A program made the translations under genes and the position numbers. DNA of 64,000 nt from positions 6,733 to 70,732 of the forward strand of contig CAMBPQ010000005.1 of assembly GCA_945869735.1 (NCBI GenBank). Reading direction: 5' to 3'. The notes beneath the pieces are model-generated. The model was given only the letters and a program-made list of their open reading frames with translations. It was not told the DNA's origin and ran no database searches. The DNA is from Planctomicrobium piriforme (lineage in GTDB: Bacteria > Planctomycetota > Planctomycetia > Pirellulales > UBA1268). Positions 55,279-56,145 of the stretch are shown piece by piece (positions within the stretch are counted from its first letter, which is position 1; each line of letters opens with the position of its first letter).

Positions 55279-56145
55279 ATGGCGGTGTCTCGAAAATCGC
55301 GTGTTCAGGTGCAGACGCCCCGGGCGGGGATCGACGCCGCCGCATTGGCTCGACGGGAACTGCTCGCCTTGCTGTCGGCCGCCGCCGGCACGCGGGTCGC
55401 CGTCTACCAGCCACTCGTGCTGGTGCGGCCCGATGCCGCAACGGATCTGCTTGGCGACATCCGCAATGTCTGTCTGGGGTCTACCTCCGACGGAAACGCC
55501 ATCGCCGATGGCCGGGAACTCGGATCGATGCTCGCCACTGCCGAGGCCCACGACCGCCTTGATCGACTCCACGCCCGCCTGCTCTCGAAGCCATTCCTGC
55601 TCGTGCGGGGCGTCGATCGCCTCGCCTCGCCTCACTGCCAGCACCTCTTCGCAAGATTGCTCGATGCCGCCGCGGAAGCCGGCACGCTGGTCTGCGTGTC
55701 ACTGGCCCGGACGCCGGTCGCGGCGGGGCTTGAGGCGGCACTCGAGTCGCGGCTTTCCGCCGGCATGGTGCTCTCCCTTCCAGCGGCCGACCGGAGCCTC
55801 GATCGGGATGCTGGCATGGTGCCATCACGATCCATCGCCAGCCTGATTCGGTCGACGGCGCGGCATCACGGCATCGCCGCCGAGGTGCTCATTGGCCATG
55901 GCCGTCAGCAGTGCGTGGTTCGCATCCGCAGCGTGGCGATGTATCTGGCCCGGCGGCTGACGATCCACAGCCTGGAGGAGATTGGCAAGGCTTTTGGCGG
56001 CAGACAGCACACCACCGTGATGCGGAGCGTCCGCAGCGTAAACAAGTGGATCCGTGCCGATCACGGCTTCGCGCAGGACGTGGAAAAAATTGTGGGGGAA
56101 CTGCGGGCACCACGGCTCCGTCGCCGCAGGCATCCGGCGGGATGA
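55279..56145 (+). CDS. DnaA-like protein: DnaA domain IV plus a degenerate AAA+ core without Walker A/B
   Basis: The C-terminal [38 protein letters not shown] is a DnaA DNA-binding-domain signature. The central [10 protein letters not shown]...[12 protein letters not shown]...[13 protein letters not shown] aligns to the DnaA box VI-VII region. No GxxGxGKT is present. The gene occupies the dnaA position upstream of dnaN. Confidence 0.7.
   Translation: [288 protein letters not shown]

Follow-up and report, generated by a model that had tools for sequence, protein, structure and literature searches.

The question addressed here is what occupies the place of dnaA in a genome of Planctomicrobium piriforme, and what this means for the initiation of replication. 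The DNA analysed (64,000 nucleotides, hereafter the window) corresponds to positions 6733-70732 of contig C5 (CAMBPQ010000005.1), and the assembly is a metagenome-assembled genome (MAG) of 3.17 Mb in 128 contigs, 95% complete. In an initial annotation, an open reading frame of 288 codons was placed in the dnaA slot, directly 5' of dnaN, a DUF721 gene and gyrB, and the present frame call and Pfam matches agree with that placement. The frame (55279..56145, + strand; ATG at 55279, stop codon at 56143-56145) encodes a degenerate short DnaA paralogue of 288 aa, here termed degS for both gene and protein. The initial annotation asked how initiation is licensed in an organism with such a gene. That question falls away, as the whole-genome search that it proposed found a canonical DnaA on contig C18. 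What remains to be explained is degS itself, and the best reading, with a probability of roughly 0.55, is that of a non-essential, DNA-bound pseudo-ATPase accessory of the full-length DnaA.

The protein encoded in the dnaA slot

The C-terminal part of degS was identified as DnaA domain IV, as first annotated. Pfam Bac_DnaA_C (PF08299) matched with an E value of 4e-20 (score 72 bits, cut-off 31.5), and E. coli DnaA domain IV (1j1v) was matched by phmmer with an E value of 1.7e-13. The domain, a helix-turn-helix of residues 185-275 (55831..56103, +), matched 1j1v and 3pvp with a template modelling (TM) score of about 0.94 and a root mean square deviation of 0.8 Å. It is followed by an Arg-rich C-terminal tail (residues 276-288; 56104..56142, +), which alignment places in the degenerate forms of the genus and not in the P-loop-bearing relatives described below.

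The central region gave no match to Pfam Bac_DnaA (PF00308). A profile of the core (residues 1-175 of degS and 15 orthologues, domain IV left out) was compared with a profile of 19 canonical DnaAs. The match (92.8% probability, E 4e-7) spanned 131 columns, beginning at strand beta1 and ending shortly beyond box VII. The register was the one in which the middle of the protein had initially been aligned with the DnaA AAA+ core. The AlphaFold2 (AF2) model, with a mean predicted local distance difference test (pLDDT) score of 83, has an AAA+ base of five strands, after which comes domain IV; residues 1-17 and 173-180 are disordered, the latter with a pLDDT below 50. The best Foldseek matches of the model in the PDB were DnaA structures (8btg, 1l8q, 3r8f and 2hcb, and domain III in 8bv3 and 2z4r), followed by Hda. 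The profile comparison is the more independent of the two tests, because the input alignment of AF2 included DnaAs.

The elements of the AAA+ base were assigned by alignment and from the AF2 model. The N-terminal helix (residues 20-35; 55336..55383, +) corresponds to the helix before beta1 of DnaA domain III, and the residues before it (1-19) are disordered and variable. Strand beta1 (PLVLV, residues 45-49) leads into the dead P-loop site (RPDAATD, residues 50-56; strand and site together 55411..55446, +), which is two residues shorter than GPxGxGKTH when aligned with P-loop-bearing short paralogues and full-length DnaA. A Walker A regular expression matched none of the 12 orthologues in the genus. 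The two helices after beta2 (residues 78-102; 55510..55584, +) align with the initiator-specific motif region. In the Walker B strand, FLLVRGVD (residues 106-113; 55594..55617, +), the acidic pair has been lost: R110-G111 occupy the DD position, and D113, two residues further on, does not vary within the genus family. The alignment shows that the sensor I strand, VCVSLARTP, has been kept.

Box VII (residues 151-164; 55729..55770, +) is also kept, with an arginine finger, R158, the equivalent of E. coli DnaA R285. Of 49 aligned DnaA-family sequences, all have L155 and at least 90% have R158; within the 16-member degenerate family L155, R158, L159 and G162 never vary. Compared with both the P-loop-bearing short paralogues and full-length DnaA, about 65-75 residues, comprising lid IIIb with sensor II, are deleted, and a short linker of 18 residues stands in their place (residues 167-184; 55777..55830, +), delimited by the alignment gap and disordered by pLDDT. 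Since degS begins about 40 residues before beta1, domains I-II are missing. The initial description of a protein with no P-loop, RG for the Walker B DD, no lid or sensor II and no domains I-II was thus borne out.

The DnaA equivalog model TIGR00362 scored 87.1 bits on degS (cut-off 343.9) and covered profile positions 347-435 only. With DnaA (TIGR00362; PF11638, PF00308 and PF08299) degS shares a homologous AAA+ base, the initiator-type helices, the box VII arginine and the domain IV fold; it differs in having no ATP site, no lid and no domains I-II, and the true DnaA of this genome is the C18 protein. By TIGR00362, Walker A, Walker B, lid and domains I-II, degS is not a member of DnaA proper.

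The full-length DnaA and the short planctomycetial paralogue

The C18 gene was found by a six-frame hidden Markov model (HMM) search of the whole assembly. Its product, of 517 aa, matches Bac_DnaA (6e-31), Bac_DnaA_C (5e-20) and, weakly, Hda_lid and DnaA_N, and carries the motifs GPSGVGKTHL and LLVIDDLHF; in the genome-wide scan the first two models gave 1e-31 and 8e-21. It is a canonical, four-domain DnaA and is the organism's initiator, separate from degS; initiation is therefore not orphaned. A full-length DnaA is likewise kept in all 24 genomes sampled from the genus. The only other PF00308 match in the assembly (C91:8850-9820) is an IstB-like helper ATPase of IS21, frameshifted over two frames, and was rejected as DnaA or Hda. 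With one full-length DnaA and an IstB fragment as the sole further match, the genome therefore has no Hda.

A second DnaA homologue, here called S-type, was found between the desulfurase gene and dnaN in 14 genomes of other families of the same order, and 12 of the 14 S-type genes have an intact GPxGxGK[ST]. In S-type proteins the AAA+ domain is preceded by just 10-40 residues or so, and domains I-II are therefore missing. Those of Aeoliella, Gimesia and a third genome (G039) pass PF00308 at 1e-16 to 1e-26, and both Pfam DnaA models are passed. Examples from closed genomes are WP_442483509.1 (Aeoliella sp. SH292, 336 aa), QDU06658.1 (Gimesia aquarii, 344 aa) and QDT30774.1 (Thalassoglobus polymorphus, 340 aa). 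All three closed genomes start at the S-type gene (position 1), and each holds an additional full-length copy elsewhere. The S-type proteins are named 'DnaA/Hda family protein' by the Prokaryotic Genome Annotation Pipeline (PGAP) and DnaA in UniProt. Among 150 sampled Planctomycetota genomes, most carry two Bac_DnaA_C genes.

In a tree of 428 columns, full-length and short (S) proteins formed separate clades, each with a Shimodaira-Hasegawa approximate likelihood ratio test (SH-aLRT) support of 99, and the P-loop-less proteins of the window's genus formed one clade (100) nested inside the S clade. The desulfurase-dnaN synteny and this nesting together identify degS as the orthologue of the class-wide S-type paralogue. 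The two have in common the locus (desulfurase, gene, dnaN), the clade, the AAA+ base, box VII, domain IV and the lack of domains I-II. Walker A (GPxGxGK[ST]) and Walker B are present in S-type proteins, as are the lid with sensor II, the classical GGRDHTT signature of domain IV and the Pfam Bac_DnaA match, whereas degS has lost all of these and has gained the Arg-rich tail. As read from the sequences, the ATPase motifs and the lid were lost once, at the base of the genus, and the ATP-dead, lid-less form appears only in this one genus of Pirellulales.

The two lineages also differ in domain IV. Full-length DnaAs of the order carry G(R/G/K)R(S/T)HSTVI(A/S), for example RRSHSTVIA, instead of the usual signature, and so differ at the positions of E. 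coli D433, T435 and H439; the P-loop-bearing S-type proteins of the same genomes retain the classical signature. Given these contrasting signatures, either paralogue might be the one that recognises classical DnaA boxes. One perfect box lies about 250-300 bp 5' of the full-length dnaA of Aeoliella sp. SH292 (G035, C1:3126769), and two one-mismatch boxes lie at a similar distance 5' of that of Thalassoglobus; these are possible sites of auto- or cross-regulation.

No paper on planctomycetial DnaA duplicates (the S-type and full-length pair) was found in the literature; the papers found state merely that chromosomes are re-oriented to 'dnaA'.

Proposed function and competing explanations

Judged by its lost motifs, degS would neither bind nor hydrolyse ATP. 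Its domain IV would bind DNA with a shifted specificity, the Arg-rich tail being an addition to it, and the face with the arginine finger would meet a full-length DnaA protomer at its ATP site. The other face would accept no further protomer, degS having no nucleotide pocket or lid of its own. The protein may thus serve as a one-sided cap, or as an ATPase-stimulating partner, of DnaA oligomers, and the outcome would be an accessory modulation of initiation or of DnaA-dependent transcription, by a logic like that of Hda or of clamp-loader delta'.

The proposed contact was modelled by complex prediction with residues 165-517 of the full-length DnaA, ATP and Mg. The complex with degS scored 0.90, a level that 58 of 80 solved complexes and 2 of 110 mismatched pairs attained, and the best of three controls scored 0.00. 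The runs agreed in at least 68% of contacts, with a partner pLDDT of at least 70. On the degS side, the predicted interface has residues 153-166 (box VII) as its core, together with 20-27, 92-95 and 126-148; residues 92 and 94-95 belong to the initiator-specific motif region. On the side of the full-length protein it comprises residues 212-214 (P-loop), 243-250 and, in the lid, 371-389 and 405-413. The pose resembles solved DnaA filaments (2hcb, 3r8f and 8btg). The model shows that the interface has stayed DnaA-like, and not that degS binds.

The rate and pattern of change were examined in close pairs of genomes. The distance between degS and its nearest orthologue (G022) is 0.22 substitutions per site, and that between the full-length DnaAs of the same two genomes is 0.01, so that degS evolves about 20-fold faster. 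Ratios of nonsynonymous to synonymous substitution rates (dN/dS, by the method of Nei and Gojobori) were 0.17-0.34 for the core, 0.15-0.39 for domain IV and approximately 0.8-1.0 for the linker; those of dnaN in the same pairs were 0.03-0.07. There is thus genuine, if weak, purifying selection on degS, and the core is under it no less than domain IV.

The short gene is present in 12 of the 24 genus genomes, in every case without a P-loop, and absent from the other 12. In all 11 non-carriers with an assembled dnaN locus the desulfurase gene directly adjoins dnaN, and carriers and non-carriers interleave in the dnaN tree, which indicates at least three losses. Such repeated deletion in situ, with the full-length gene kept in every genome, shows that the short gene is dispensable in the genus. 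A TAG inside the match in one carrier (G020), considered as a sign of a pseudogene, is in fact where a slightly shorter protein normally ends.

Several results weigh against an accessory of this kind. The 530-bp spacer between degS and dnaN (56146..56675) contains no classical DnaA box (TTATCCACA) with up to two mismatches. A search for 8-mers recurring across 14 spacers of the genus gave nothing convincing, the best being AACCAACA, in five genomes. Of the six base-contact positions mapped on 1j1v, three are changed: E233 (P423 in E. coli), Q243 (D433) and R249 (H439). The docking result may reflect the predictor's memory of that interface, because DnaA-DnaA filaments have been solved. Lastly, relaxed selection and several losses would also fit a gene on its way out.

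The other three base-contact positions, R209 (R399), H244 (H434) and T245 (T435), are kept; the contact roles of the E. coli residues are those established by work on 1j1v. Taken with the added Arg-rich tail, the mapped positions suggest that degS likely binds DNA through domain IV, with altered specificity. The initial annotation had offered, as one possibility, an Hda- or SeqA-like regulator parked at the origin. A regulator at the dnaN locus is retained from this as the best reading; membership of the Hda family and likeness to SeqA are not, and for this genome, whose spacer has no classical box, the location at the origin is no more than a possibility.

A first alternative, which we consider unlikely, is that degS is a stand-alone DNA-binding regulator, either a transcription factor or a competitor for boxes (for example at the dnaN operon or at DnaA-regulated promoters), in which the dead core would be a scaffold or a means of self-association with no contact to DnaA. 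DnaA doubles as a transcription factor, and domain IV is the best-conserved part of degS; the degenerate forms have acquired the Arg-rich tail, and the gene lies directly 5' of dnaN. Chlamydial DnaA paralogues have been treated as transcription factors (PMC4989314). Against this, selection constrains the core no less than domain IV, the invariant residues are those of the inter-protomer box VII face, and the neighbouring spacer contains neither a DnaA box nor a repeated motif.

No more probable is a second alternative, that degS is a decaying relic, functionless since its ATPase died and persisting until it is deleted, as in sister lineages. The three or more independent deletions in situ, a rate about 20-fold that of full-length DnaA, a dN/dS 4-8 times that of dnaN and the fact that PGAP recognises just a 'helix-turn-helix domain-containing protein' would all be expected of such a gene. 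The frame, however, is open in 11 of 11 orthologues, across pairs with synonymous distances (dS) above 1. Selection is region-specific, as the linker has a dN/dS of about 1 while the values for the core and for domain IV are far lower, and the arginine finger and several core residues are invariant. Contigs from RNA libraries also cover the gene: metatranscriptome contigs 100% identical to the window, all from one library, span 55218-55395 and 55825-55977, and a third (56220-56407) lies in the spacer; the start of dnaN is covered by two other libraries. These contigs are of low depth and DNA carry-over is possible, so that they give only a hint of expression, and the stretches that they leave uncovered (55396-55824 and 55978-56219) are uninformative on transcript structure.

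That degS is itself the initiator, acting without canonical ATP control, was the strong reading of the initial annotation and is now very improbable. The gene does hold the classical dnaA position upstream of dnaN, the DciA (DUF721) gene and gyrB, and the corresponding spacer of a relative is rich in boxes. In both genomes of Gimesia aquarii (G112 and G095), the 537-bp spacer between the S-type gene and dnaN (C1:1036-1572, 33% GC) contains four boxes, each with no mismatch or a single one. A pair of them is perfect, and these two are the only TTATCCACA sites less than about 5 kb apart among the 54 perfect sites in 7.2 Mb. By sequence, this spacer is a textbook oriC-like region beside a paralogue without domains I and II. 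On the other side stand the complete DnaA on C18 and its counterparts in the 24 genus genomes, the absence of the short gene from about half of these, and the lack in degS of domains I-II for helicase loading, of an ATP site and of adjacent DnaA boxes.

An artefact of assembly or annotation, that is, a normal dnaA frameshifted or truncated in a MAG of 128 contigs, can be dismissed: the longer, TTG-started frame from 54973 that would extend the protein was rejected as the true start (it overlaps the desulfurase gene and encodes low-complexity R/P/S/A text), no reading frame of 53501-56300 contains a P-loop motif save a chance GLCVVGKT inside the desulfurase gene, contigs of an independent metagenome study span 54900-56800 with three substitutions and no indel, and the same architecture is common to 11 orthologues in other genomes of the genus and to 22 cluster members on up to 95 contigs. 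degS is a bona fide gene. The frameshift, the upstream extension and an unrelated core had been named beforehand as ways in which the initial annotation might fail; all were checked, and none restores the motifs or refutes the homology.

Neighbouring sequence and relation to known DnaA-family proteins

The upstream neighbour of degS is a class-V aminotransferase/cysteine desulfurase gene (53979..55202, start approximate, +; Pfam Aminotran_5, E 2e-35), whose place is kept across the order and whose end is separated from the degS ATG by 76 bp. On the 3' side follow the 530-bp spacer, dnaN, the DciA (DUF721) gene and gyrB. The dnaN gene (56676..57788, +; alternative GTG start at 56646) encodes a beta clamp with three DNA_pol3_beta domains. 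The open frame of the DciA gene (57307-58152) shares about 480 bp with the 3' end of dnaN; since Pfam recognises DUF721 in the last 90 or so codons alone, translation probably begins close to 57800. The presence of the DciA domain implies that the organism uses a DciA-type helicase operator. A 946-codon open frame antisense to gyrB (57897-60737, -) was rejected as a gene, such frames being typical of DNA of 65-70% GC. Public copies of degS are found in metagenomes of freshwater lakes and sediments, and one MAG that has the protein is labelled Pirellulales bacterium; one cluster member, MEX0669828.1, is named 'helix-turn-helix domain-containing protein [Pirellulales bacterium]'.

The spacer between degS and dnaN has a GC content of 56%, with a minimum of 43% near 56438. 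Between close relatives it diverges almost neutrally, at about the synonymous rate, except for some 90 bp before dnaN and for 56488-56527. Scans of 54800-57000 with Rfam and for sigma-70 promoters and terminators found nothing. The 188-nt metatranscriptome contig within the spacer (56220-56407) has no Rfam match and may be a 3' untranslated region, a dnaN leader or DNA carry-over.

The GC skew of C5 rises from slightly negative to about zero near 50 kb of the contig, and that of C18 is positive on both sides of dnaA; both are too weak to place an origin. The densest cluster of DnaA boxes in the assembly is an array on another contig (C40:20755-20845), between tRNA genes next to tuf, with a period of 21 bp and three to four box-like 9-mers in one orientation (TGCGGATAA, TGCGGATAA, TGTGGATAA, TGTGGATGG). 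As a candidate origin or datA site the array was rejected, being absent from all 40 relatives searched, the closest included; it is probably a strain-specific repeat. In Aeoliella, the 265-bp spacer between the S-type gene and dnaN contains two one-mismatch boxes. The skew of the closed genome of Aeoliella sp. SH292, sampled as 40 samples of 20 kb, had a best positive arc that begins at about 5.9-6.0 Mb and ends at about 3.0-3.3 Mb (permutation p 0.09, suggestive only). On this arc, the origin would be close to the S-type gene and dnaN, and the terminus close to the full-length dnaA (3.13 Mb). In the relatives, the locus of the S-type gene and dnaN probably lies at the origin.

Among known proteins, the logic proposed for degS is shared by Hda/HdaA, the factor of regulatory inactivation of DnaA (RIDA) in Proteobacteria (PDB 3sc3, 3bos and 5x06). 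Like degS, Hda is a DnaA-derived AAA+ protein without domains I-II, and its arginine finger acts on DnaA-ATP, as is proposed for degS, of which R158 and its neighbours face the P-loop of the full-length DnaA in the docking model. Hda has no domain IV and has a nucleotide (ADP) site, a lid (PF22688) and an N-terminal clamp-binding motif; degS is the opposite on each count. No clamp motif resembling QL[SD]LF was found in the alignment of degS orthologues, in which the N-terminal 40 residues are variable. By its domain IV, the lack of a clamp motif and of a nucleotide site, and its S-type lineage, degS is not of the Hda family, and it shares nothing with SeqA.

Clamp-loader delta' (HolB) and other AAA+ pseudo-ATPases bind no nucleotide and give an arginine finger to the neighbouring active subunit. 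They belong to an AAA+ clade unrelated to degS, and the analogy is functional only. HdaB of Caulobacter is reported to be related to DnaA and to target RIDA (10.1101/712307 / PMC7049699). It consists essentially of a domain IV-like segment and is, like degS, a small, non-essential modulator of initiation related to DnaA through domain IV, whereas degS retains a full dead AAA+ base and the arginine finger. Chlamydiae, of the same PVC superphylum, resemble the present genomes in having more than one DnaA-family gene each (DnaA1/2/3); the chlamydial paralogues are described as full-length and DnaA-like, and a form without P-loop and lid is not described there (PMC4989314).

No description of a DnaA-derived protein that joins a dead AAA+ base, a kept arginine finger and domain IV was found in the literature. 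The DnaA-family accessories studied so far keep, to our knowledge, either the nucleotide site (Hda) or domain IV alone (HdaB). degS would be a third design, a dead AAA+ scaffold with both the arginine finger and the DNA-binding domain kept.

A wider scheme is put forward tentatively, and we hold it to be doubtful as a whole. Planctomycetia would have a two-DnaA system, with a copy lacking domains I and II at the dnaN/oriC-type locus and a full-length copy, with an altered domain IV signature, elsewhere; in the genus of the window, the former would have become a nucleotide-free, DNA-tethered donor of an arginine finger that caps oligomers of the full-length DnaA or turns off their ATP. If true, this would be an Hda-independent, RIDA-like control module of an undescribed kind, with natural knock-outs in sister species.

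For annotation, the practical warning is that the 'dnaA' used to set chromosome position 1 in Planctomycetia is the short paralogue and not the four-domain DnaA; in the window's genus, the short gene is annotated just as a helix-turn-helix protein, or is missing. The genomes also offer a natural series in which to ask what the second planctomycetial DnaA does: neighbouring families have an ATP-competent S-type, some species of the genus have the ATP-dead form, and in other species the gene is cleanly deleted. The finding leaves the picture of initiation in this organism intact, and exposes an unstudied two-DnaA arrangement.

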